From Pocillopora damicornis (lineage: Eukaryota), in NCBI RefSeq assembly GCF_003704095.1, contig NW_020845487.1, positions 310,001 through 374,000 of the forward strand: a stretch of DNA of 64,000 nt, written 5' to 3'. Positions 18,801-63,460 of this stretch are shown here, piece after piece. Under the pieces are notes generated by a model that made no database searches, was not told the origin of the DNA, and saw only the letters and a list, made by a program, of their open reading frames with translations. The position numbers and the translations under genes were made by a program. Within the stretch, counting starts at the first letter, position 1. Every line of letters starts with the position of its first letter.

Positions 18801-21800
18801 GAGAAGTATAATGTAGCCAAAATTGGATTTAGCTAAAAAAAGAGTTAAGACATCCTTAAGCTCAACAGAGCTGCTAATAAACGCATAACTACTTAATCGT
18901 GTGCGACAGAAAATCAATAGGTAAATACAAAGACGATTTGGCTGAGACTCTGGTTTTAATCTTATAATATTACCTTAGCTCCAAGTGAGAACTGCTTTCA
19001 GTGAATAAATGCCGAACAGTAAGATGCAAGAACGATAGCTTTGAGCAACAGATTTCTTTGTCTCTGGTAGTCACTGAAAAGAGCTCACAGAGTGTCAAAC
19101 ACTCTGACTCCTTAACCCTTAATTAGCTACAAATTAAGGATAAAGTATCAGTACCGACAGAAATCACAAGGTCAGAGTGGATTAAATCTGGCCTATGCCA
19201 ATTCTTTTATCTTTTAGAAGGCAACTCATGCAATCAAACAAATAGAAAGCCCGAGTCCATACTGCACATGAAGCCATCTAATCTGTTGAAAATTTGTTTT
19301 GGAAAGAAGTGACTTAACAAAGTTTGTCATTTTCTGATTTGAAATGACCTGTCAGCACCATCAAACTCTCCTATTCAACAATTTGCTTGAAATTCACTTA
19401 AACTTAAGTCCAATTCTCATCAGCAAAGTTTCACCATTGGATAAAAGAACGAAATGAAAACACTAAATCCAATTTGCCTAAGACATTTAACATCGCAAAT
19501 TCATCAGTCATTAAGTAATTAGACAAAGGTCTTCCCAAGCAGAAAGCACTTGTATTTCATTTAAGTAACGAAACAAGATCAACACGTAAGGTCAAAATTG
19601 TCATGAGCAATAAATGGAAAATCTGGGAATCAATTAGAACTACAGACCAGACTTCAAGCTGTGAAATTGTCTGGTTATCAATTCCCTGGTAAGTTAAATT
19701 TGCGTACGTCCTAATTCCGTATCAGAAGTTCTCTGAACGTTGTCTTACAAATTGTAAGTACGACCACTTAATGTGTTGTCAGTAATTCTTTATAAGATTA
19801 AACTGAAGCGTTATAGAAAGGCATACCCAACAGGCATACCTAACAGTTACTTCCTACTTTAACAACAAAAAACCTGATTCGGGACTGAAAGTTTGAGATG
19901 GACCAGAATAATTAATTAAATGAGGCTGTCGGTGGCTGAGTTTATAAAGCTTGAAAAACCATTCGTTTTTAGTACAGAAACAATCTCCCAAAGGGAAATG
20001 AAGAAATCCGAAGAAATCACGCGAACATACCTCAGGGTTTCCCAATCATTTGTTTAAGTGTAATGAAAAGAAAAACGTTTAGATGTAAAAAGTTTGACAA
20101 ACAAACAAAACAGTTCAAATTCAAGATACTTGTCTAGAAAGGATGACTTTCTTTAAAAAACATAGGATAAGGTCGAGCTTAAAATAACATAAAACAGGTT
20201 CCAAGCAATACCTGAATGTATTCGAAGCTGAGGGTCGGAATACACCAAACAGAAAATGTCCAGTTTCTAACCAGATATTTTACCTGCAGCTTCTCACTAG
20301 AATTAGAGACAGCTTCCTGAATATGACATTTTTTCAGATGTTTCTGACATGCAGGTCCGATGTCGTTACCTGATTGACAAGTACTTAATATACCTTAATG
20401 AAAACTTGGAAACACAAGATCATATTGCAACAATCTGGTAGCTTTTAGAAATTGAAACTTTACAGATATTGCAATTAAACAAGAAGCACAATTTAGACTT
20501 AGCCTTAAATACATTGAAATTACTAGTCAAAAATGCATCACAGAGGTAACTAATGTGTTCAGTTATTAATACGCTAAGTGGCTTGTTTTGCGTGACTGCA
20601 AAAATAAATCTGCTTATCAAATCCAAGATAAACTATCAAATTAAAATGGATATTTTAAGGACAGAAAAATAAGCACAAACCATCAAGGATTTTAAGGTTA
20701 ATAAACACATCTATTTAGACTAGAGGCAGATCAAGTGACCAAAACAGAATTTATCCCTAGAATATCAATACAGTATCAAGCAGACAAGTGGTAAGAATAG
20801 AGAAAAACATCTATTCTGGGATTATAAGTTGAGTTGATTTCAATGCCAAATTCTCCAAACTAAAATCACAACAATTGTATTGCGAAAAGTTGGGAGAATT
20901 ACTAATAAGATCTTAAGAGTGAAAGGGTTAAACTAATTTTCCCAATGTAAATCTGCCATCTATTGTGATTTACTCGTGAAATGCAGGAATATTTAACATA
21001 CACTGAAGGACAATAGACATCCTGAGTGTGTATCTATTTTCAAAGACAACAAAGTGTTTTTTTTTCCTACTGAGAAATCAAACCAGCCTTACAAAAAGCT
21101 GCAAGAATCTCTATCAGACCCTAGTTTAAAACCTGATCTCTAAATAAATAAAGCCTATTTAAGTAAAGTTACCACATCCTTAGAACCTTCACCAAAATGA
21201 TTCATTTGAAAATAAAACCTAACTTGGGAAAACTTTCACTCATAGGTACAAATACATACTTCTCCTGAAACATACTACTCGTGGTGATGCACAACTCAAG
21301 GTCTCAAATGCACCCTTAAACCCAGAAATGCCATACAGCTGTAAAACTTTGGTAGGAAATGTGGTCCCATCCCAAGCCACTCTCCTACAGATTTGGTTGC
21401 CATTAAAACACTTAAATAATGCTTGCACATTTCCTGATTAAGGATACTTGAACACAGTTTAATTGCTAAGCTAGACCACTAAATCACAATTATTTAACAT
21501 AAAATAAATCTGGGTAGCTTTGATTACTGGTTCTCAGGTATGCATGGATAACCTGATATTACACAATGTAAGAAAAAAATTGAAAAATAATAAATAAACA
21601 AATAGATACATGTACACAGATAAAGAAAAAATAAAGTCTTGTTACCCTTACCTTGTTTTGGGAGCTTGGGGAAACACGCTTCTTAAACCTGTCAATTGCT
21701 TTATCCAGGATATCAGAGTCCACAAATTCCAAATTCAGAGATCTACGCACTTCTCCTAGGAGAGCATCTAGGTGAGTCTCATCCTTCTTGTCATCATTAT

Positions 21801-24800
21801 CACTCACGGACAAAAGTTTGTCATTTGGACCACCAAGATTTAGATCAAGAGTCTCTAGATCAGTTCCCACCAATGATATCTCTGGGCAAGGTTCTGTGTC
21901 TACAAAGACCACTGTTTCTGTGCTGCCACCAAATTCTCCAAAGCGATCATCATCTGATGAATATGATGATGATGAAGCATCTCCTTGAGATTCCACATCA
22001 CTAATGGCATGCTTGTCCTCCTTTGTGGAGGTGATCACTGGTTTTTCTGGTTGTGCATCATCAAGTTCATTGAAAATTATTTTACCAACCCCCTCCTCTT
22101 TTTGTACACGGTTTGGCAGAGGTTTTGGTGTACTTGTAATGTGCATTCCATGCTTTTTTCTGTAGTCAATGAACACGTCAATACCTTCAGGACTAGCTAC
22201 TTCATGGCACAGTGTTGCTTGAGTTCTATTCTGGAAGCCCTCAGCTGGTGTAGTTAATTCTAAAATTCCTGAGTTTTCTCCATGGATACTAGCTGATTCT
22301 TTTAAATCATTGTCCCCGCGTTCAGCCTCCTTAGCAGTGGCCATGTCCTGCTTTGTATCTGGAGCTGAAAGACTTTGTTTTGCATCAAAGCCTTCATTAT
22401 CAGCTTGATTTTTATCCTTATGTGAAAATGCTCTGTCCTTCCGTGGCCTTTTCAGGCTGTGAGTGTTAGTCAACTTGCTTTGTGTTTCTATGCTATCTGT
22501 TGATTCACTACCCTCAAAAGAAACTCTCAAAACTTTTTCTTCCTTGCATTTCAGTTTCTTGAGTTTATCTTCCCTGTTATCCTGACACTCCACCTCCTCT
22601 TCAAAAACCTGTGCTCTTAGTCTCCATTCTCTGAGGCTTTTATGGATATTTTCACTGCTTTCAGAACGCCTCAGTGTCTTTGCTTCTATCACATTGGTAC
22701 GCCTCTCTCTAGCAGAATGGCCACGCCTCAAGCAGTCGTAGCTCTTAGAAGACCTCGGTGGAACATGACTAGGCTTTTTGAAGCCATTATTGTCATTCTG
22801 TTTGCCAGCAGGCCGACTTAAATGCTGCCAGCTGCTTGGTAGACTCTTTGGAGCTTTGTTGAGTCTTTCACATTTATTGTCATTTTGAGGAGATGGGCAG
22901 CTATACCTCTGTACAGAAACAGGTCTGCGAGGTACTGTCTCCTTTGGGGTACCCACTTGCATACCAGCTAGGATCTGTAGAAGCTCTTCCACAGACACAG
23001 CCTTATCACTCTCCTGAGGTGGGGCTAGCATGTCTGTGTCATTGACATAAGCAGAAGATGATGCAACTGGCTGGAATTGGTCCAGCAATGACAAATTCTG
23101 TTCCTGTGACGTTGATAGTGTGGGAGATGCTCTCTTTATTGTTGGTGTCTTGATCTGCAACTCTAGTTCTTGTAACAGCAAGGAAGGTAGCTCTCGTTGA
23201 AAGTTCACCAGAGAAGTTTGTGTTGCAACTGAAGGTGGTGGATTCAAAGCTTTGAACACAGCTGGAGGTGGTGTTTGAGTACCCCTATGTCTTCTGAAGA
23301 ATTGTTCAGCTGTTTCATGCTCAGGAACGGTTTCATCAACACAAGCTGTGTTATTTTTAAATAATCCAGTCTGAATCTCATGAGGTTCCTTGTCCTCTAA
23401 AGTTGACTTTGATGACTTCCTCTCAGTAATAGACATCACCACAGATTCAATTTCAGGATCAGGTGACACTGTCTGTGGAGACTGTAAGAGCTTTTTTATG
23501 CTCAGTGCTTCAGCTGAAATTAAGCTGTCTTTGTCTTCGCATCGAGTATAAAACTCACTGTAATCTGTATCATCAAACTCAAGTCCTGGTTCTCCACCAT
23601 CCTTTGGTTCATTTTCACAAACTATTCCTTCAAGTTCTTCGTTCTGAAATTGCCCAGAGATAAATGCCCCTTCTGATATTGGTGCTTGTGAAACTTCAGA
23701 AAACCTCTCGGAAAGAGTTTTTCTTCTAGACACCTCAGAATCTGAGCTATGTCCATTTCGTGAAGACTGAGGGCCAAACAGAGCCTCCATTGCACTGACT
23801 TTACGTCGAGTCACTGCTTTGACCAAGCCATCATGAATAGTACCATTAGTGTGATGTTGGTAACCCTGTGTCGGGAAGTTTGGCAGCTTGAAGATTTTCT
23901 CAACTTCTGAATCACTTGAAGAGCTTGTGTAAGATGAAGCCCGTCGCAGGGTCTCTGGGTGTGACACCTGAGCAGGACTAACAGGTCGAAATAAAGGTGG
24001 CTGTTCATCAGTGGCAAACTCAATAGATTGTCTCTTCAGCGCATTAATAGGATCACGACTCCCTAAGGAATGTCTTGCTCTCCTTCGTTGAACCTTAGGG
24101 AAAGAGGAGCTTTCATTGTCTGTGAGACAAATGCTGGAATCAAGTGACATACTTTTGGGAATGTGGCCATTACGAAGACCATGTGGTTGATGCCTCAATG
24201 GCTGAAATAAAGGTTCGGAATGAACACTGCTGTCATCAGAGGTGTAACCTGAATACTCCAGGTTTGATACACTTACTGTGCGGCGATCAGCCTCCCCAAA
24301 TTTTCTGTGGGAAACTTTTCTTCCAGTTGAAGGGCTCTGCAATGGTTGCCGAACAGTGCCAACAAATGGGGAGGAAAGACCACTCTCTGAACACCATGAT
24401 GACCTTGTCAGTTTGGGTGCAGGAACTTGGTAAATTTTGCGCACAAAAGGAGAGTCAACATCAACAGGACTTGGCTCACTAAATGACCACGATCTCCTTT
24501 TCAACTCAGAAGTAGTATCACCTTCTTTCCAGTTTGGGAAACCAGCAATTGACCCTGGGCGTCTTTGCGCTTTCTTCTGGTCACAAGACCTTGAACAAAT
24601 CAACAATTCATGTTTGAGTTCATTCACACGTGGATTTTGTAGCTTTCCACCTGGGCCTGTTCCCAGTTGTTCAATCTGCACAAAATCATGCAAGGACCAA
24701 ATATTGTCACTGAATTGAATATCATTGCCAGATACTGTGGTTCTTAAAAGATCACTTCCCCTTGCTGGAAATTTTAAACTTTCCATAACATTCCGTTCAG

Positions 24801-26013
24801 GTGTTGAGGTTGCTGTTGTTGAGAAGGAATGGTCAATTTCATGAACAGCACCATTGTCACCATTATGATCTACATCAGGTACAAACTGTCCTTGAATGTC
24901 AACTTTTTCATCTTCACTGACACATTCAAGCCTTGTTTTTTCATTCTCAATGCTATTGTCATGGAATTTTTCATGGACAAAAGAAGAATTCACCGAAGAC
25001 TGGAAAAAACTGCTCCCATCAATGGCAAATTCTTCTTCTTCAACTAGAGGCACAAACTGCTGTGGTGAATGTACAGCTCCCTGATGTACATTAAAAGATT
25101 CACAATCATCATTGTCACTTTCCAAGGAAAATGTCTCACTGTCTGCTAATGGGGCAATATTTTCAGCTTGGTCTTGACAATTAAGAACTAGGTGTGAATC
25201 ACTGCAACTTTCTGACGTAAAATCTTTGCTTCCAAGAGCACAAGGTGAGTCTTTGACATTTGTAGTCTGTACATTTTTAAAAACTGTGTTTTTAATTGCT
25301 CCATCTTTAGCAAATGCTTCAAAAAAGAGAACACGTGTTTCAACAGAGTTTCTCTTTGCACATTCCTGGCTCTCCTCATGCTCTCCATTGACAGCTTTGT
25401 ACTCACTTTGGCTTTCATTATAGGAGAAACGCTTGGTGACGTCTTTATTTTCGGTAAGAACTCTATCAATGTGATTAAAACTTGAAGGGGGGGCACTGCC
25501 ACGTCTTATCTTAGGCTTGGGAGGAACAGGTGGTTTCCCTCTCAATTTAATGGCATCGTTTGTTGTCAATGTACCCTCTGGAGACTCACCATAGTAAAGG
25601 CAGTAAAAATCACTGGCTCGTCTGGTTTTCTCAAGAACATCAGAAACTCCATCCACACTATCTGTAACTACAGTTTCATTTTCCCCATTTGTGATTATCT
25701 CTCCATTCATGGCATTTTCCTTGCCAGCAACATGACTATTTGCACAATTTTCTTCAGTAGCAGTTGACGCAGAAGATGCCACCAATGTAGTACCAGTATC
25801 TGCTTGACTTTCTTTATTTGCTGCTTTACACTTTTTTGAAGCTTTTTCCTTCACTGGTGAGGAGCTTATGGACCCATGCGAGCTGTCACTACTGCCATTT
25901 CTTTCAATCTCATCATCCAGGAAACACCCAGAGTCTGTTTTACTTTTGCTATCAGGTGCACTTCTTCCACGATTAGGTCGGTGAACTACTCCTGTCTTTT
26001 CTTTGCCACTCAT
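9838..26013 (-). CDS. Neuron navigator (NAV/UNC-53)-like protein: long disordered N-terminus, coiled coil, C-terminal AAA+ domain
   Basis: Phase-consistent exons: 21652-26013, then small linking exons that are uncertain (near 21350, 20284-20368, 19650, 18974), then 17913-17996, 17036-17192, 16416-16501, 16186-16263, 15565-15658, 14757-14828, 14225-14289, 13658-13764, 13316-13376, 13073-13119, 12602-12706, 12267-12347, 11911-12003, 11721-11824, 11468-11586, 10885-11038, 10294-10394, 9838-9951. The translation follows NAV motifs in order: ELKLLHDENDMLR; DSLVYDTLLPK; LLEHRCIVLCGQQGLGKSYLASKLAE (Walker A); PAVIILDQL; CPYIIG; FLRRKL; DWLSKVWYHLN; GPSLFYSCPMD..WFVNVWNYNVIPYL; WEDPTKWVVLRYPW. Confidence 0.88.
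12085..12188. repeat. Intronic minisatellite, about 38-bp unit, about 2.5 copies
   Basis: Recurring ACACTAGCAGACTGATAGACACTGACAGATA. Confidence 0.7.
13832..14183. mobile_element. Two abutting TTAA/piggyBac-like MITE copies in a NAV-like intron
   Basis: Same internal motifs as 8816-9028 and 33136-33347; junction near 14003. Confidence 0.6.
20750..20931. mobile_element. TTAA/piggyBac-like MITE, partial
   Basis: Ends ...GATCTTAAGAGTGAAAGGG|TTAA and shares the body of the 54662-54869 copy in reverse orientation. Confidence 0.65.
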
Positions 26014-29000
26014 GTCAAAAACTTCGCCTCATTCCCATAATGGTGTCACAAAAGCTTGAGGTGTTTCAAGCCGAGACCTGAAATAAAGACGAGAAATTTC
26101 TGTTGGTGGAAATGCTACAGGATCATCAATGCTAGCTTGACATCAAAATGTGTTTAAACCTTGATCAGAAATGGCTTCAATAGTTTTGATAATGAAGTTT
26201 TTTAACCCAGCACCTGACCTTACATATTAATTTTCTTTCTACTGTCTGAGTTCTAATCCTGATCACAATTTAATCACTGTAAGTTTAATCACTTGTTAAA
26301 GATAAATAATGGGTTCAGTGATAAAAATCTCAGTAAGAAAAACCTGACTTCTAGCAAAGACACAGGGAGTGTGTTTTCAATGACAAACTTCACAAGGGTT
26401 ACATCCAGCAGACAGACTTTGTGATATCAAGAAACAAATTACTCATGAGAGCCATTGAAATTTGAAGCATAACACTTACATGTAAGTTGTTATGAATCCA
26501 CATTTAAGTGATAGTTTAAAAAAGGAAATTGTTAATCACTACCATCAGTAGAAAACCAAAACTTGTTTTCAACATGTGATAAGGATCCAACCAAAGTCAT
26601 AATTGCTTTGAATGTTCTAGAACTTCTGAGAATTAGCTTACAAAACCACTACTATGAAGTGAATAGATTAACTTCAAGTCAACAGCATGTACAAAAAAAG
26701 TTACCAAGTTTCATCTGATGAAAATATATGTAGATGTGAGGAAATATTGAAGCCTCTCACAAAAATGTAATAGACAGTGTATTTGTCTATGAATAATGGG
26801 ACAAAACATCCAACCAACAAATATGCTTAGTATTCAAACATGCTTTCCTTGTACAATTTGAAAAATGCCTAACACATGTCCTAAAATACACACTTGATCA
26901 AAATCCTTCATGGGAAACACAATAGAAAGTTGTGAAACACACAAAGATGACCAGTTTCAACACAGTTCTATAGTCACGATCTCTACTGGGGCAGTGAAAT
27001 TAATTACAGGCAAAACATTATCTCACAAGTTTAGATAATAATTGCAACTACTAGACCACATACAACAACAGGAGTTCTCTACGTTTCTTCTTACCAAACA
27101 AAGCAAATAACTTCAAACCAAAGCTTACACAAAATCTGTCTTAGAAACCAAGTTGGGGGTAAAGCTCACTGTAACTGCAAACAAGTTTTGTCTGTCAACA
27201 TTTGAAACTAAATACTGCCATAAATGCTTCATTAAACAAACAGCCACAGTCAACTAAAGGAATTCACAAAATGTCATTTACATAATAAAAATATAGTGTA
27301 ATTGCTTCATTATATGCATGACATGAATACTCAATATCTTCATGTATGAATACAAATTTGAAACAAAATGAGTAAGTCTTTCAATTTGCACAAAGATAAA
27401 AAGGATATAAGTTACACTGTTACTGTACATGGAAAATTGGGTCCAAACAGAGATCATGGCCTTACACTGTTTATTGCAAAAGGATAATTAAGAAATTTAC
27501 TGGACAAGAAATACACTAATTGATAAGGAGATGAGATGCTAGTTTAGCATGAGTAGTTGACTTTGTTTTGGATATCAGACAACACACAAAGGTATAGTTA
27601 ATAACTATACCAACAAATTACTGAATTTCAACTCAATAAATTGTAATAGACAAATGAATTTTTCGTATTACTGAAAAGTTATTCTGATGTTCCACATTTC
27701 GACAAAATACATACTGTGCATACTGTAGCTCCAGTTACAGTGATCTCACTTAGTACCAATGTCTAAAGAAATCTGTAATATTTCAAGCATTCTTTGTTTT
27801 GTTCTTGACTGTCCCATAACAGCTCCTTTTCAACGTCAGTTTGTCATGATTTCTCGACACAATAAAGTTGTACTTAACAGCTAGTAGACAATTTAAGACA
27901 ATTTCCACTTCAAACCAAACATTAAAAGATAAGACCATGTGGTTTAACTTTAATTTAAATATACCCAATATGACCTGAAATGGACTGAAATGTTACCAAT
28001 TTAACTATGTGTTGAGCACAAAAATGGATTTTAAACAGAGCACTTCCTGAATATTATCTGAAGTGATAACAAAACCCACAGACATACCAAAAATGCATAA
28101 AAATTATCACCCCATGGTACATACCATTTGATTATAGGGACATCCAATTAATTTAAACCATTTCCATAAATCAAGAGTAGAACACATACTTGAATCATCA
28201 TCAAGCTGCAAAACATGATTATTATTGTTGTCATTTTTTCATTTTGTCACACAAATTCACTTATGTTCAGTCCTCTTGAACAGGCAATTTTACTACTAAC
28301 AAGAATTCCTTTTGAGATTTCAAAGCAAAAAGTCATCACCAGCGATTTTTGAGAAGAAATTCTTGGATATAATCCGCTTCATCATGATAAATGTACAATA
28401 ATAAGATTTGAACCTGCAAGGTATGTAATATACAGCAAAGCCTTTTGTCATCTTAGAATCTTGATGCTCACAAAAATTTCCTCTCTGAGATCAGTTTATA
28501 TACTGTAACTCCTTGTTTGTCCCTCTATGACCTTTAATTTGGGGTAAATTGCTATAATGTCACACCATTCCATGGGCATTAAAAAAAGGTATCTCTGCAA
28601 TCAATTGTAAGAAAGTGCTAGTGCTATTACTGGGCTTGTAAATAAAACCAATCCATAGGTACTATTAGGCATATAAGTTAAGTTTTCTGTGACATATCCA
28701 CAACTTTACAATGGGGAAGTGTAAGAGTAATTTAACTTTGAGGAAGGGCATTTCCTCATACATATACATAACTGAAGAATGGCATCTCCATATTCTGAGA
28801 CCAATTCAAGTTCTGTAGTTATGACCTCATTTGGACAAGGTTTCAACATGCACTCTTTTAAGTAAATGCTTTGACTAAATGGATTTACCGAGCAGCAAAG
28901 AATTTCTTCAATAAATTCAATGATTTAAGCTGGATGAATGAATTTTTCAAGAGGATTATTCAGTATTTTTAGATGTTACCTAAGTGTAAAGATTCAGAGG

Positions 29001-44200: not shown

Positions 44201-44664
44201 ATTTCCATTAAAACAATTAAAGATGCTAGTATTGTTGACTTGCTAGCAAGATGAAGACAATCAAAAAAGTAATTTATGTATCGGTATCTCTTCGTTCTGA
44301 AGCTTAAGTAGTCCATAAAATTAAAATAATAAACACGCACGATCTCCGAAAATCTTTCACTCGTAATATCTCCTGTTATAACTCAATAAGCTAATGATCT
44401 TAATTGTTTCCTTTCTGGCCTTTCAATTAAGAATTTAAAAGTTAAAACAAGATATCTGTGAAAATCAAGACCAGTACTCACTCTTCCAGAAGAAATGTCG
44501 CAGACATTAAGCGCTCCTGCATCAATCAGATCTTGTAGATTACCACACCAGTGAGTCCATTCAGCTGTTCTACTATCAAGATAAACCAAGGCATTGTTGA
44601 CAACAGTCAAAAGTTTTTGCCAGACTGATGTTATTCCACGTTCAAGTGCGCTTTTGGCCGCCAT
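35217..44664 (-). CDS. SCFD2: Sec1 family domain-containing protein 2 (SM-family trafficking protein), about 16 exons
   Basis: Exon 1 (44482-44664), MAAKSALERGITSVWQKLLTVVNNALVYLDSRTAEWTHW, matches the SCFD2 N-terminus. Other exons: 43524-43751 (KAVFVIGTLL); 41789-41920 (GYLSKVIATELANLPAARTRRK); 40444-40620 (SLILVDRTLDLVGA..DTLADRIIQSLPRLPQHTSDVAVDM); about 35620-35750 (HPLLVLFIVGGITCSEV); last exon 35217-35307 (LLIGSTRL..DNLFPALH*). Some internal boundaries are approximate. Confidence 0.9.
36130..36430 (-). repeat. Degenerate SINE-like repeat in an SCFD2 intron
   Basis: Contains GAGAGAGGCATTGT..GTGTCTTGTCCAA..ACA..GGACTCAAGCC, a motif set related to 56040-56210. Confidence 0.45.
40805..41593. 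mobile_element. Non-autonomous Tc1/mariner (Tigger/pogo-like) element, about 790 bp
   Basis: Imperfect TIRs TA|CAGGGGAACCTTGAGTTAAG ... CACTAAATCAAGGTTCTACTA|TA with TA flanks. Confidence 0.5.
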
Positions 44665-45080: not shown

Positions 45081-45959
45081 CGTGAACTTTAATTAAATTC
45101 TTTCAAATCAGAAATTATTTGGTTAGGATGAAATGTTCAAAAAAGAAGACACGCCGTTTCATTTTCAGTTTTCGTTAAAAAGCTGTCGAATTTTCGGTCA
45201 CAAAGGGATATTTCTATGCATGGTGGAGTAATTAAAGCAAAGGATTTAGTGATGGTTTCAAATGAGGCCTAAAGCTATCGTTTGAAAATAAGTTTCTTAG
45301 CTTTCGCTGATCCGCAGCATCATCGCCGTAGAAACTTATTTCTGAGACTGTTATAGAATTGTAACTATGAAGGTTTGTCTTGGCTTCTAGTTCTCGCATA
45401 ATCCCTCACGCTAACCCTAACCCGATTAGCCCCTTGTCCTAGACCGCGAAAACAAATGGCTCGCTGATTTTACTTGGAAGGGAAAGTAACCGAAAGTAAA
45501 GTGAAAAATGTTGGTTGAGCTTTAAAAAGGAGGCTCGGAGTGTCAGAATACGAAATAATTTTGAATTTTTCACTATGTTCTTGGGCAAAGAGAATGGAAG
45601 GAATTGATTAAAACGATTAGATTACATTTACTCAGGTTTATTTCACTAGAGAAAGGAAGGTGAGAGGGTTTATTTGATTCTGTTAAGGTTTTAGACTTGG
45701 TCATGCCAGCTTGCCTGAAGGCCCTAACCTCAACCAGATCCTTAATCAATTACGCCTTAGATATGACCAACTTTTTCGATGTTTCCCAAGCTCCTCGAAA
45801 TTAAATCACCTCGTATGTGGATGAGGCAATGTTAACAAAGAAAAGCCCTTTATACCTACGATATTTCCGTACTTTTAATTTTATTTTATAGAGGGCCACT
45901 GTGTCATCAGTTTTATTACTTTAGTGTGCTACTCTCTATAAATTAAGTTTTCTCTAATT

Positions 45960-46144
45960 TACTGTATCAGTATAAATTTGTGGAGTGTCAGATGATTAAT
46001 TTTGGCTTTGCCTCGATTAACTCGGAAAGGTCGGCGATCCAAGCTCTGAACATTGTTTTCTGTTAATATTCTTGGTATGCTCTCAATCATTGGCTATGGG
46101 TGCGTTGGTTGCGGAGAGATGTCCTAATAAGAATGACATCATAT
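45960..46144 (-). pseudogene. Decayed continuation of the connexin-like ORF resembling a pre-NACHT linker
   Basis: Same frame after the stop: I*CHSY*DISPQPTHP*PMIESIPRILTENNVQSLDRRPFRVNRGKAKINHLTL, then QIYTD after a frameshift (LxLxxIYT-type motif). Confidence 0.5.
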
Positions 46145-46918
46145 TCATTTCCGTCCCTTTTGCTGTGAGCGGCCTTGGGGCGAGTCGGGAATATTTAGGT
46201 GGTCAGTAAGAAACGTTTTTCTTCGCAAAAAAATGCAGAGCATTTCAATCAAAATAAGAAGCACGTAAGTTCCATTCGTTACGAGAAGAGCACGCAACCA
46301 GAAGGTCTTCTTCTTTGCCCGTGGATTGTGACACTCGAGCTCGAGTGGGATAATTCTGCGCTGATCATCTTCTCCTGTTGTTGAGCAATGAAATTTGGGG
46401 AGAATTTCGAAACGATAGAGCAACAGAGTTTGTAAGATAATAAACAATACCCCTGTGACAAGCCTTATGGAAAGTTGATAACAGTAAGCAAGAAAAAGCT
46501 TGCGTCCCATTCTTTCTTTTTCGTCGTTACGTGACTGTCTCCCTTCATCGTCGTGTGACTGTTTGCTGTTCTGTAATTGATCGACTATAGGACTCGCTAT
46601 CTGGGCGTAAACTGCACAAACAAACCCCACAAGGAAGCAATGTACAATCACGAAGCCATAGATAGGGACACTATATTCGTTATACCGCCTCTCGTACAGC
46701 TCAAAACACTTTCCCCGGTAAAGTTCGCTGTTGTCGATGTCGTCGCTGCGTTCTGGAGCCCCACTGCAGTGAAAGTCAAACCTGGATTCCCTGTGTTCGA
46801 TGTCTACAAAGACACCAGAAAGGGTTACTGCGAGTCCGAACCACAAGATAACTGCTACGTAACTTAGCAGGTTTAAGGTTTTCGGTCCTAGTATTTTTTT
46901 AAGAGCTTCAGCATCCAT
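46145..46918 (-). CDS. Intronless four-transmembrane connexin-like protein, 257 aa, resembling the N-terminal TM domain of anthozoan membrane-anchored NLRs
   Basis: Four hydrophobic helices. EL1 is ESRFDFHC...GKCFELY (connexin EQSxFxC...CYD). TM3 is RKLFLAYCYQLSIRLVTGVLFIILQTLLLY (connexin LLxTY..K..F..Q..LY). EL2 is KFHC...LECHNPRAKKKTFW (connexin YxC...VDCFxSRPTEKTxF). TM4 ends LLILIEM (connexin LNxxE). Strong start context GCGATGG. Confidence 0.8.
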   Translation of the reverse strand: MDAEALKKILGPKTLNLLSYVAVILWFGLAVTLSGVFVDIEHRESRFDFHCSGAPERSDDIDNSELYRGKCFELYERRYNEYSVPIYGFVIVHCFLVGFVCAVYAQIASPIVDQLQNSKQSHDDEGRQSRNDEKERMGRKLFLAYCYQLSIRLVTGVLFIILQTLLLYRFEILPKFHCSTTGEDDQRRIIPLELECHNPRAKKKTFWLRALLVTNGTYVLLILIEMLCIFLRRKTFLTDHLNIPDSPQGRSQQKGRK

Positions 46919-47011
46919 CGCTCCCGTTTGTTCGAGTAAGATTCTTCTTCACTCATTTGTCATCTGACGATGGTCAATAAAACGTGTGGTTTTCATATCA
47001 CCTCTGATGCA

Positions 47012-47115
47012 GGGTTTATTTAAAGACATGCTTGAATATTATTGGTCGGTAGGAAAGAGAGTTGATTCACACAGGAACCCAATGTCAGAAACCGAAACTG
47101 GAAACTGAAATGAAA
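47012..47115 (-). promoter_or_regulatory. Promoter of the connexin-like gene: TATA-like box, CCAAT and tandem ISRE/IRF sites
   Basis: On the minus strand: TTTAAATAAA (about 47014-47023), CCAAT (47041-47045) and TTTCATTTCAGTTTCCAGTTTCGGTTTC (47088-47115), which contains the canonical AGTTTCNNTTTC. Confidence 0.6.
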
Positions 47116-48418
47116 AAATAAAATAAGACACTAAAATAGATACCTGTATCTGCTGCTTGGGCAGAATTTTCGTCACTTGTTTACCTATGTTATGGTGAGT
47201 CGCTGGAGAAGACGCTTTAAATTGTTATTGAATACTGAACAAGTATTATCATATCTCGCAGTTAGTACTTGAGCAACCACCCCTGGTCATAATTCTTACA
47301 TGGGCAGTAAAAGCCATCACAAAACTTCCGAAAATGAGATGAATACTCATAAAAAGGGAAAACTGTCTGAGAATATCTAATGACAGTTCTGAAGGACTGT
47401 AGAATTCCAGCAACCGGGTTCCCCTGATTTCAGTACTTTGGAGGAAAAACCGCTTATCGACCTTTCGTTCGATAAGAGACGAAAAGTCAGTGGTATATTG
47501 TCTGTAATAGAGTACTGGCATTGTGAAGAAGCAATCTCGACAATTTACGTTTTGGATAGGATAGATCTTCGTTCACGGAAAGTCGATGTCAGTGCAACTA
47601 GCGCAGCGGGATTGAAATCTGATTGATGTTTTCATTCAAACTGGTCTTATATTTCCTTTCTAAATTTCTCGATTCTGATTAGCTGAGAGAAATGCAGATT
47701 TCAGGAAATATACTGAACTAAGAAGGAAATTTAGTGCAGGAAAAAGCCTTAGGTAATTTAATGCAAAAATAGTAAAAAAAAAAAAAAAAGAACAACATCA
47801 ACAGGGCAATCTGATTGGTTGATAAACAAAGGCACTCACAAAGAACCAATCAAACATGAGCTCTGGATGACGCAAAGTTGCAAAGCGAGATACTTTCATG
47901 ATAGATAGTATCTTCGCCAAGTTTGAGCTAAATTAGTGATTTGAACATTACCACCCCCTGCCTGGTTTTCTCGTGGATACGCTCTTGATACATTAGCATA
48001 AGACTTCAAAACCATTATGTAATGATAGTGCTACTGAAGGACATCATACAACGATGCTAGAGGAAGTCGCTGTCGCAAACGATTTCGCCTAAAGTTTGCC
48101 GGGATGTGTTTTCTGGCTTAAATAGCACAATTGACAAGGCCACTTCACTAGAGATAACGAATTATCGTTGATAAACCCCAACGGCCAAGAGAGTCGGAAC
48201 AGAATTTGAAAACCTTTTTTTTTTTTTTAAGAGAACACATATATATGATTGTTTAATTCATACTCGTAGTGAAGGTATAGAACACGTCGTTTGAAGAACA
48301 AGTTTGCTACCACATTGAAGTCACATCTAAGTTTTATTGTGTCTGATTCTACAATTAAAATGGTAGAGTTATTGTAAATATACAATTTATATATATTTAT
48401 TTGTCTTATCTGCAGTCC

Positions 48419-62364: not shown

Positions 62365-63460
62365 CACTGTGGCGAGACACTTTAATAAGGCTTTATTGTT
62401 GAGGATTAGAAAACAACTACTGATAAGAACGAAAGTGTGACGGAATTATCCGCTCATATGAGCACAGCGTTTGACTTGCTGCATCTTGCTCTAAGGATTC
62501 AGAAGCTTACAGCATGCGGTTTTTCGGAGATGTCCACAGGGTTCTTCCTTTGCACCTTTATCACTGAATCTATTCCAAAACAATATGTTTTCATGTACGG
62601 AGACGACCATCAAATATACACGACTGGGACTCAATCAAAAAAGATATTCAAGAACTAAAGAGTGAAACGGAAAAGGTCACGCAGTGGTATAAAGTGAACC
62701 TGTTACAAGCCAATCCCAGCAAATATCAGATTATTGCGATCGATCCAAAGCTCTTTATAAAGGAGCTTGTAGACAAGTTATTACTTCAAATTGACAGTCA
62801 AGTGGTAAAATCCTTCGATAAACTAACAATTCTCGGAGTGAACATTGATGAAAAGTTAACATTCATTGAACATGGAAAAGACATTAACAAAAGAGCTAGT
62901 CAGAAAGTAGGAGTGTTACTGAGGTTACATAATTTAATACCCTGTTCTGCTAAACTGCAACTTTATAAATTCGCTATTCTTCTTCATCTAACGTACTGTG
63001 ACATTGTATGGCAATTCTTTAAATCCTCCGACAATTGTCAAATTTCAACAAATTCAAGAACGTACATTAAGAGCGGCATTTAAATCAAGTACCGAGTCCT
63101 ATATTGTTCTCTCACAAAACAGCCTGCCTCCCTACCCTGCACCAAAGATGACTACAAGAGATTGCCACTTTGATGTAAAAAGTCAAGAACGGCCTAGTGC
63201 TGTACTACATTTCGGAGTTATGTCAGAAAATTACTATAAAGGATACTACCTTGCTGAGAAATGCCAACTTTAACATTCCTCCTATTACAAAAACACACTT
63301 AGGTGAACACTCACTGCGTTTTTTCGAACCCCTTCTATGGAAAATTTAAGCTCTGTCCACTGTAAGAGAGATCGAGCCTTAAAAGTTTAAAACAAAGCAT
63401 TAGCAAAAGACTTAACACTTTTAATAGATGCATGTAAACATGGCAACGTATGTATGAATA
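62365..63460 (+). mobile_element. 5'-truncated, frameshifted CR1/L2-like LINE reverse transcriptase
   Basis: MSTAFDLL (DLSKAFD-like), FMYGDDHQIY (YADD motif), LLQANPSK, LGVNIDEKLTF..H, KLQLYKFAILLHLTYC. Confidence 0.8.

Follow-up and report, generated by a model that had tools for sequence, protein, structure and literature searches.

A free connexin-like gene of Pocillopora damicornis, very probably derived by truncation of a connexin-NACHT-LRR receptor

We found that a 64,000-nucleotide stretch of the Pocillopora damicornis genome (RefSeq assembly GCF_003704095.1, contig NW_020845487.1, positions 310,001 to 374,000; hereafter the window) carries an intact gene for a stand-alone connexin-like (CxL) protein. 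This gene very probably arose through truncation of a connexin-NACHT-LRR receptor, and we are largely confident that it is still functional. Its 3' UTR still contains the decayed remains of a pre-NACHT linker, so its likely origin is a connexin-NACHT-LRR receptor that lost its sensor half; the channel part would have been retained as a working gene. The sequence of the locus is direct evidence that the NACHT-LRR portion of a connexin-NLR can be dropped while the channel remains as a free, transcribed gene under selection, and it bears on the origin of free-standing connexins.

The reading frame and its connexin-like product

The ORF lies on the minus strand (46145..46918) and runs unbroken from an ATG at 46918 to a TGA at 46147-46145, encoding 257 aa (29.8 kDa) in a single exon. 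The earlier note on this DNA had left its domain unnamed; we found that the content of the intact ORF (46918-46148) is a CxL domain. The protein passes the Pfam Connexin profile PF00029 with 41.3 bits against a cut-off of 31.3, and its predicted structure consists of four long helices and extracellular beta strands (pLDDT 84.6). When this model was used for a fold search, all PDB matches listed were connexins, with Cx31.3 at the top (E 2.5e-5), and identity to the connexins among these matches was 11-19%. Four cysteines, two per extracellular loop (C51, C71, C178 and C196), are present in the ORF protein and invariant in 61/61 relatives. K140 (codon 46501-46499) occurs in 17/61 relatives, and position 232 (R232, codon 46225-46223) is R or K in 56/61. 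Neither Pfam nor searches of the window revealed LRRs C-terminal to the CxL domain of the ORF.

A 2026 preprint describes pmCxL30, a connexin-like protein of Pocillopora meandrina, which in HeLa cells formed a membrane hemichannel opened by depolarisation or raised CO2 (bioRxiv 10.64898/2026.06.13.731801). Its CO2 gating involves K140 and R232; once open, the channel lets out ATP and glutamate, and gap junctions were not formed (10.64898/2026.06.13.731801). The first nine residues, K140, R232 and the mass (30 kDa vs 29.8 kDa here) match between pmCxL30 and our ORF; judging from these four features, the two are apparently, indeed almost certainly, the same gene or orthologues. Taking the genes to be identical, the ORF protein likely functions as a hemichannel with a gated large pore, as reported for pmCxL30. 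The earlier note had proposed that an effector-only copy could act as an executor pore. The preprint reports autonomous channel activity for pmCxL30 in HeLa cells; the helper or decoy role that the note also put forward would go beyond it.

According to the preprint, CxLs without a NACHT could be products of incomplete annotation or belong for the most part to a single separate clade; an ancestral role of connexins in immunity is also proposed there (10.64898/2026.06.13.731801). Its main text contains none of the terms ‘fission’, ‘truncat’, ‘stop codon’ or ‘pseudogene’ and reports no relic, selection evidence or promoter element of the kind found here for the ORF. If the ORF is pmCxL30, the preprint’s main test protein would be naturally short and derived, being neither a partial annotation nor an ancestral form. 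In our literature searches only the preprint named pmCxL30, and the word ‘connexin’ is absent from PMC8260672.

The linker relic and the descent of the gene

A reread of the sequence recovered everything that the earlier note had described at the end of the gene: an open ORF, then three more in-frame stops on the minus strand (TGA 46141, TAG 46126 and TAG 46096), the quoted peptide MIESIP...HLTL in the same frame as the ORF (46090-45983) and, after a frameshift, QIYTD, which forms part of QIYTDTV at 45980-45960 in another frame. The three extra stops occupy a spacer (46094..46144, minus strand). Beyond it lies the linker relic (45960..46093), whose core (46087-45960) matches in frame the pre-NACHT linker of CxL-NACHT-LRR paralogues, apart from a one-base gap that falls between 45981 and 45980. 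A codon-guided alignment of the DNA with seven paralogues places the ORF frame in register with their linker and shows one base missing at the D of the LDQIY motif. The last stop, TAG 46096-46094, stands opposite Gln codons (CAG or CAA) in 6/7 paralogues; the earlier note had thought an origin of TAG from CAG plausible. A reading of the relic with three frameshifts, obtained at low frameshift cost, was set aside in favour of the in-register alignment. The idea that a frameshift within the repeat spacer had created the main stop was unsupported, since the spacer (46185-46085) had no significant likeness to those of eight paralogues (114-467 of 500 shuffles as high).

The likeness of the relic to the linker was assessed with frameshift-aware profiles. 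With a profile built from the linkers of 24 relatives and tested against 248 window tiles and 1000 shuffles, 46087-45947 topped all 248 tiles, and its score was reached by 0/1000 shuffles at frameshift costs of 12 and 15 and equalled by 1/1000 at a cost of 8. Four further profiles, two of which contained no near relative and one of which consisted of 23 distant sequences picked solely by Walker A, each gave 0/1000 shuffles and 0/244 tiles at the relic score. Our first profile, made from 9 sequences, gave a borderline result: 8/400 shuffles scored as high, and the relic came fourth among 248 tiles. Pairwise DNA tests against seven near paralogues gave 0, 0, 0, 6, 13, 23 and 52 of 300 shuffles as high as the relic, and those against two distant paralogues gave 123 and 212 of 300. 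The tBLASTn check of the downstream segment suggested in the earlier note did not report the relic, nor did blastn, hmmsearch or nhmmer.

These misses by standard searches would be expected if the linker likeness were due to chance and the gene were an old stand-alone connexin, and the next branch of the clade (L040, P0022) likewise has no NACHT. We consider such a coincidence highly improbable, because the relic is significant with five profiles at the expected place, strand and frame and the ORF is nested among NACHT-bearing sequences. The interpretation of the segment behind the stop as a decayed pre-NACHT linker of coral TM-NLRs, which the earlier note had put forward, is supported by the five profiles and by the register with the paralogues. 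Its observation that no NACHT Walker A follows was also correct: Walker A is absent after IYT, where the score of the stretch is no better than background (reached by 141/390, 73/390 and 138/390 tiles), and an extension of the relic up to Walker A was rejected on these scores.

The family profile, from positions 256-265 onward, aligns to NLRP3 from its pre-NACHT segment at about residue 130, which we take to be the FISNA region, so that what is called the linker here may belong to the NACHT module as a FISNA-like segment. The FISNA label itself was dropped, as six relatives gave no Pfam FISNA match.

Within the same genome, the ORF protein has 22 matches; in the best ones, one long ORF covers CxL, linker, NACHT and LRR. 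Its closest paralogues are CxL-NACHT-LRR receptors, with 45-50% identity in the CxL domain, and its named homologues are from Pocillopora. A library search yielded 164 relatives, 150 of them listed, and 82/163 sequences with a near-full CxL domain and no X were kept for a tree. Here the ORF protein, on a long branch (0.86), is sister (99/97) to 15 sequences, 12 of which have a NACHT Walker A, and outgroups of this clade include further NACHT-bearing sequences. Because the tree nests the ORF among NACHT-bearing sequences, we place its descent within the single-exon CxL-NLRs. The tree, the relic and its register all agree with the derivation from a TM-NACHT-LRR receptor claimed earlier. Identity of the relic to the paralogues by codon position is 0.56/0.58/0.46 in the codon-guided alignment, or 0.57 at positions 1-2 vs 0.46 at position 3, the corresponding values for the TM domain being 0.67 and 0.49. 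Because the relic keeps some codon signature, the loss of the C-terminal domains may fall late on the long branch.

The family evolves by birth and death, and short ORFs with nothing but CxL are common in it. The ORF locus is isolated, away from the NLR clusters of the genome. L041, L042, L045, L054 and L056 are broken or partial family copies, of which L041, L054 and L056 have kept the upstream element described below; L041 and L042 have 5 and 3 stops within the CxL domain, where the ORF has none. L040 (1200-2918; G000:C897, about 362.2-363.9 kb, plus strand) is a second NACHT-less copy with an intact CxL domain. Its 573-aa frame has a long acidic repeat tail after the CxL domain and it groups with P0022; the following 5 kb contain no NACHT or linker relic, and searches for a linker relic behind L040, L041, L045 and L056 gave nothing above background. 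In other corals, separate branches hold proteins with two CxL domains in tandem and short ones with CxL alone (P0032, P0030, P0042, P0044 and P0046; 7 of the 13 members of P0044 are 267 aa long), and it is possible that independent truncation was repeated among them. P0031 (76% identity) was rejected as an orthologue because its C-to-T pattern relative to the ORF gene makes it look like a converted copy. It likely entered the protein collection as an artefact of a bisulfite library, and P0170 is its cluster mate.

Neither a NACHT with Walker A nor an LRR was found in the 64 kb window, and the 11 kb of contig searched beside it contained none either. The next gene, unrelated and spliced, has its first coding exon at 44482..44664 (minus strand, ATG at 44664, no Pfam match), 1.3 kb from the relic; since the paralogues have roughly 700 residues after the linker, this gap is too small for a NACHT-LRR portion. 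The earlier note spoke of gene fission, which would leave both halves in existence as separate genes; as worded, this is not supported. With no NACHT-LRR half nearby and the next gene so close, we describe the event as domain loss, the C-terminal domains having been deleted or never copied. A 73-nt piece that adjoins the relic (45879..45951) and is 77% identical to G000:C3661:106694-106766 may mark the end of the NLR-derived DNA.

Elsewhere in the window, a low-complexity open frame of 1489 codons at 21559-26028 (minus strand, no Pfam match over cut-off) is likely one giant exon, and a VWA-domain exon lies at 493-1248 (minus strand). Another open frame at 62568-63083 (plus strand) has no Pfam match; it resembles a LINE reverse-transcriptase fragment.

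True fission, hidden splicing or readthrough would place the NACHT-LRR half elsewhere or join it in the RNA, and the preprint describes a CxL clade in which an exon boundary follows the CxL domain (10.64898/2026.06.13.731801). Such an arrangement is very unlikely at this locus, where four RNA runs contained 0 joints, no NACHT lies in the window or its 11 kb flank, readthrough would be blocked by four stops and a frameshift, and the gene groups in the tree with single-exon CxL-NLRs.

Transcription and selection

In 4/4 RNA runs examined, contigs cross the stop without a joint, and three of them extend from about 45630-45680 to 46950-46975; RNA contigs of this kind may contain DNA and carry no strand, level or cell-type information. 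Because the relic sits inside these unspliced contigs, it is now 3' UTR. The distal 3' UTR (45631..45959, minus strand) has AATAAA at 45674 and 45642, near the ends of three contigs at 45631, 45661 and 45678, which are a weak hint of the transcript end.

The ORF is under purifying selection, acting on this TM part among haplotypes that share the stop. In contigs assembled from few runs (8 of 24 listed), themselves found by matching the ORF sequence, the 16 variants listed comprise 10 synonymous and 6 non-synonymous changes on 170 and 601 sites, respectively. The resulting pN/pS is 0.17 (p 0.0006, or 0.004 under strong transition bias). No variant was listed at any of the stops, which places the selection on the ORF later than the truncation. 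Among the 15 members listed of a 90% identity cluster of 109, 12 end at the same residue as the ORF, one ends 3 residues early, and two read the TGA as W through to the next TAG. The latter two, P0011 and P0015, are artefacts of gene calling and in this way confirm the pattern of stops.

Behind the main stop there are 4 more disablements in 185 nt vs 0 in the 771 nt of the ORF (p 0.0014, or 0.037 if just two of the 4 are independent), and together with the pN/pS this agrees with the earlier claim that selection kept the TM domain. The sole indel seen in the ORF is an in-frame 24-nt deletion, and frame-breaking indels do occur in the UTR. The deletion allele (46529-46552) removes 8 aa of the cytoplasmic loop and was seen in run X19 and in 7/15 of the cluster members listed. 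The relic together with its spacer (45960-46144) has 2 variants in 185 nt vs 10 in 170 synonymous sites (p 0.016), and the comparison with the distal UTR (7 in 329) gave p 0.5; a UTR constraint on the relic is possible.

A young transcribed pseudogene would be a truncated copy whose 5' ORF stayed open by luck. The many broken or short CxL-family copies, the codon signature still in the relic and the failure to find an orthologue beyond one 90% cluster would suit this idea. Protein library searches found no orthologue of 50% to 90% identity to the ORF, and 0 of 258 pattern matches in metagenome contigs were confirmed. Even so, we regard a pseudogene as quite improbable in view of the pN/pS of 0.17, the restriction of ORF indels to one in-frame deletion while the UTR has frame-breaking ones, the location of all four disablements behind the stop, and the retention of all four family-invariant cysteines. 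Neither scattered disablements nor neutral change was seen within the ORF. The earlier note had named such a pattern, or a downstream segment that does not align to NLR linkers, as what would speak against it, and on both points the outcome went its way.

The upstream element, candidate functions and known systems

About 200 nt before the ATG lies a conserved ISRE-like element (47087..47116, minus strand) with five GAAA half-sites on the plus strand, the densest GAAA cluster in the window. It matches the ISRE consensus GAAANNGAAA, as given in PMC6954429, twice (47088-47099 and 47101-47110). A motif derived solely from the upstream regions of 13 paralogues, with that of the ORF left out, is present in 9/13 of these regions at at least 30 bits and in 9/13 at -205 to -248. 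Its best site in the 64 kb is 47116 (27.6 bits), and the best distant site scores 10.4. A 25-nt pattern had 7 genome matches vs 0 for a control, and 7/7 precede CxL-family starts, 5 at known CxL loci and 2 at loci new to the analysis. The element common to the ORF and its CxL-NLR paralogues points to DNA-level copying together with the promoter and to shared control. We infer that an IRF may bind the element, on the strength of its motif; being pyrimidine-rich on the sense strand, it could alternatively be the splice acceptor of a 5' UTR intron. None of the papers listed by our literature searches dealt with cnidarian ISREs.

Our best explanation is that the gene would have been copied with its promoter and that an IRF-type factor would induce it along with the NLRs. 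The product is probably a free-standing hemichannel whose induction would go together with that of its NLR relatives. Depolarisation or CO2 would make it release ATP or glutamate, with no ligand sensing. In coral cells this release might serve as a danger signal for which no LRR ligand is required. That the protein is an autonomous immune hemichannel we hold to be somewhat favoured.

As a decoy or helper, the short subunit might instead join hexamers with full-length CxL-NLRs, dilute their NACHT domains and damp or tune opening, by analogy with POPs and COPs on inflammasomes. Connexins form heteromers, and the common upstream element suggests co-expression with the CxL-NLRs. Domain-only NLR offspring are regulators in primates, according to PMC3775265 and PMC3056782. 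This role is unlikely, though not negligible, since pmCxL30 was gated as a channel alone in HeLa cells (10.64898/2026.06.13.731801) and the domain is just 45-50% identical to its paralogues, on a branch of 0.86. A complex prediction with two copies of the ORF protein and two of P0004 1-245, in which the alignment was unused, scored 0.25, short of the mark of 0.34.

Non-immune reuse, with the sensor-free channel serving as a CO2 or voltage sensor in, for example, calcification or symbiosis, draws on the CO2 gating via K140 and R232 (10.64898/2026.06.13.731801), the long branch and the position of the locus apart from the NLR clusters. It seems improbable given that the NLR-family upstream element was kept and that the gating residues are no innovation (R or K at 232 in 56/61 and K140 in 17/61 relatives).

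Returning to the free hemichannel, we tentatively see in this locus a stand-alone connexin being born from an immune receptor, although this broader picture is rather doubtful: a route by which free connexins could come from connexin-NLRs, with the gene kept in an IRF-type regulon as a ligand-independent ATP-release channel or a retuning subunit. The shared ISRE-like element provides a starting point for experiments on the induction of coral CxL-NLRs. The channel itself is already described, and domain-only NLR offspring are already known as POP2 and COPs (PMC3056782 and PMC3775265). Within our literature searches, three things are new: the origin by truncation, with the relic still carried in the mRNA; the evidence for selection; and an ISRE-like element found across the family.

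Besides pmCxL30, the ORF can be compared with three known systems. The anthozoan CxL-NLRs, mostly single-exon, share with it the CxL domain (45-50% identity), the four cysteines, the linker and the upstream element; unlike them, it has no NACHT and LRR, and would be capable of neither ligand sensing nor NACHT oligomerisation. POP2 and the primate CARD-only proteins, as PMC3056782 and PMC3775265 describe them, retained an N-terminal effector domain while the rest of an NLR or caspase copy was lost, the marmoset relic still retaining NBD and LRR remnants. The ORF is like them in having one N-terminal domain derived through truncation of an NLR copy. According to these papers, POP2 acts as a soluble decoy and stems from a retrocopy, which acquired a new promoter and no longer has the remnants. 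The ORF, in contrast, would encode a membrane channel active alone, as pmCxL30 is; it has kept the upstream element of the family, and its mRNA still contains the relic. Finally, chordate connexins (PF00029; Cx31.3, Cx26) share with it the fold, a single coding exon, the stand-alone state and reported CO2 gating, whereas the ORF protein is only 11-19% identical in the fold matches, has two cysteines per extracellular loop and has no gap junctions reported. The stand-alone state of the ORF has an origin independent of the chordate connexins.
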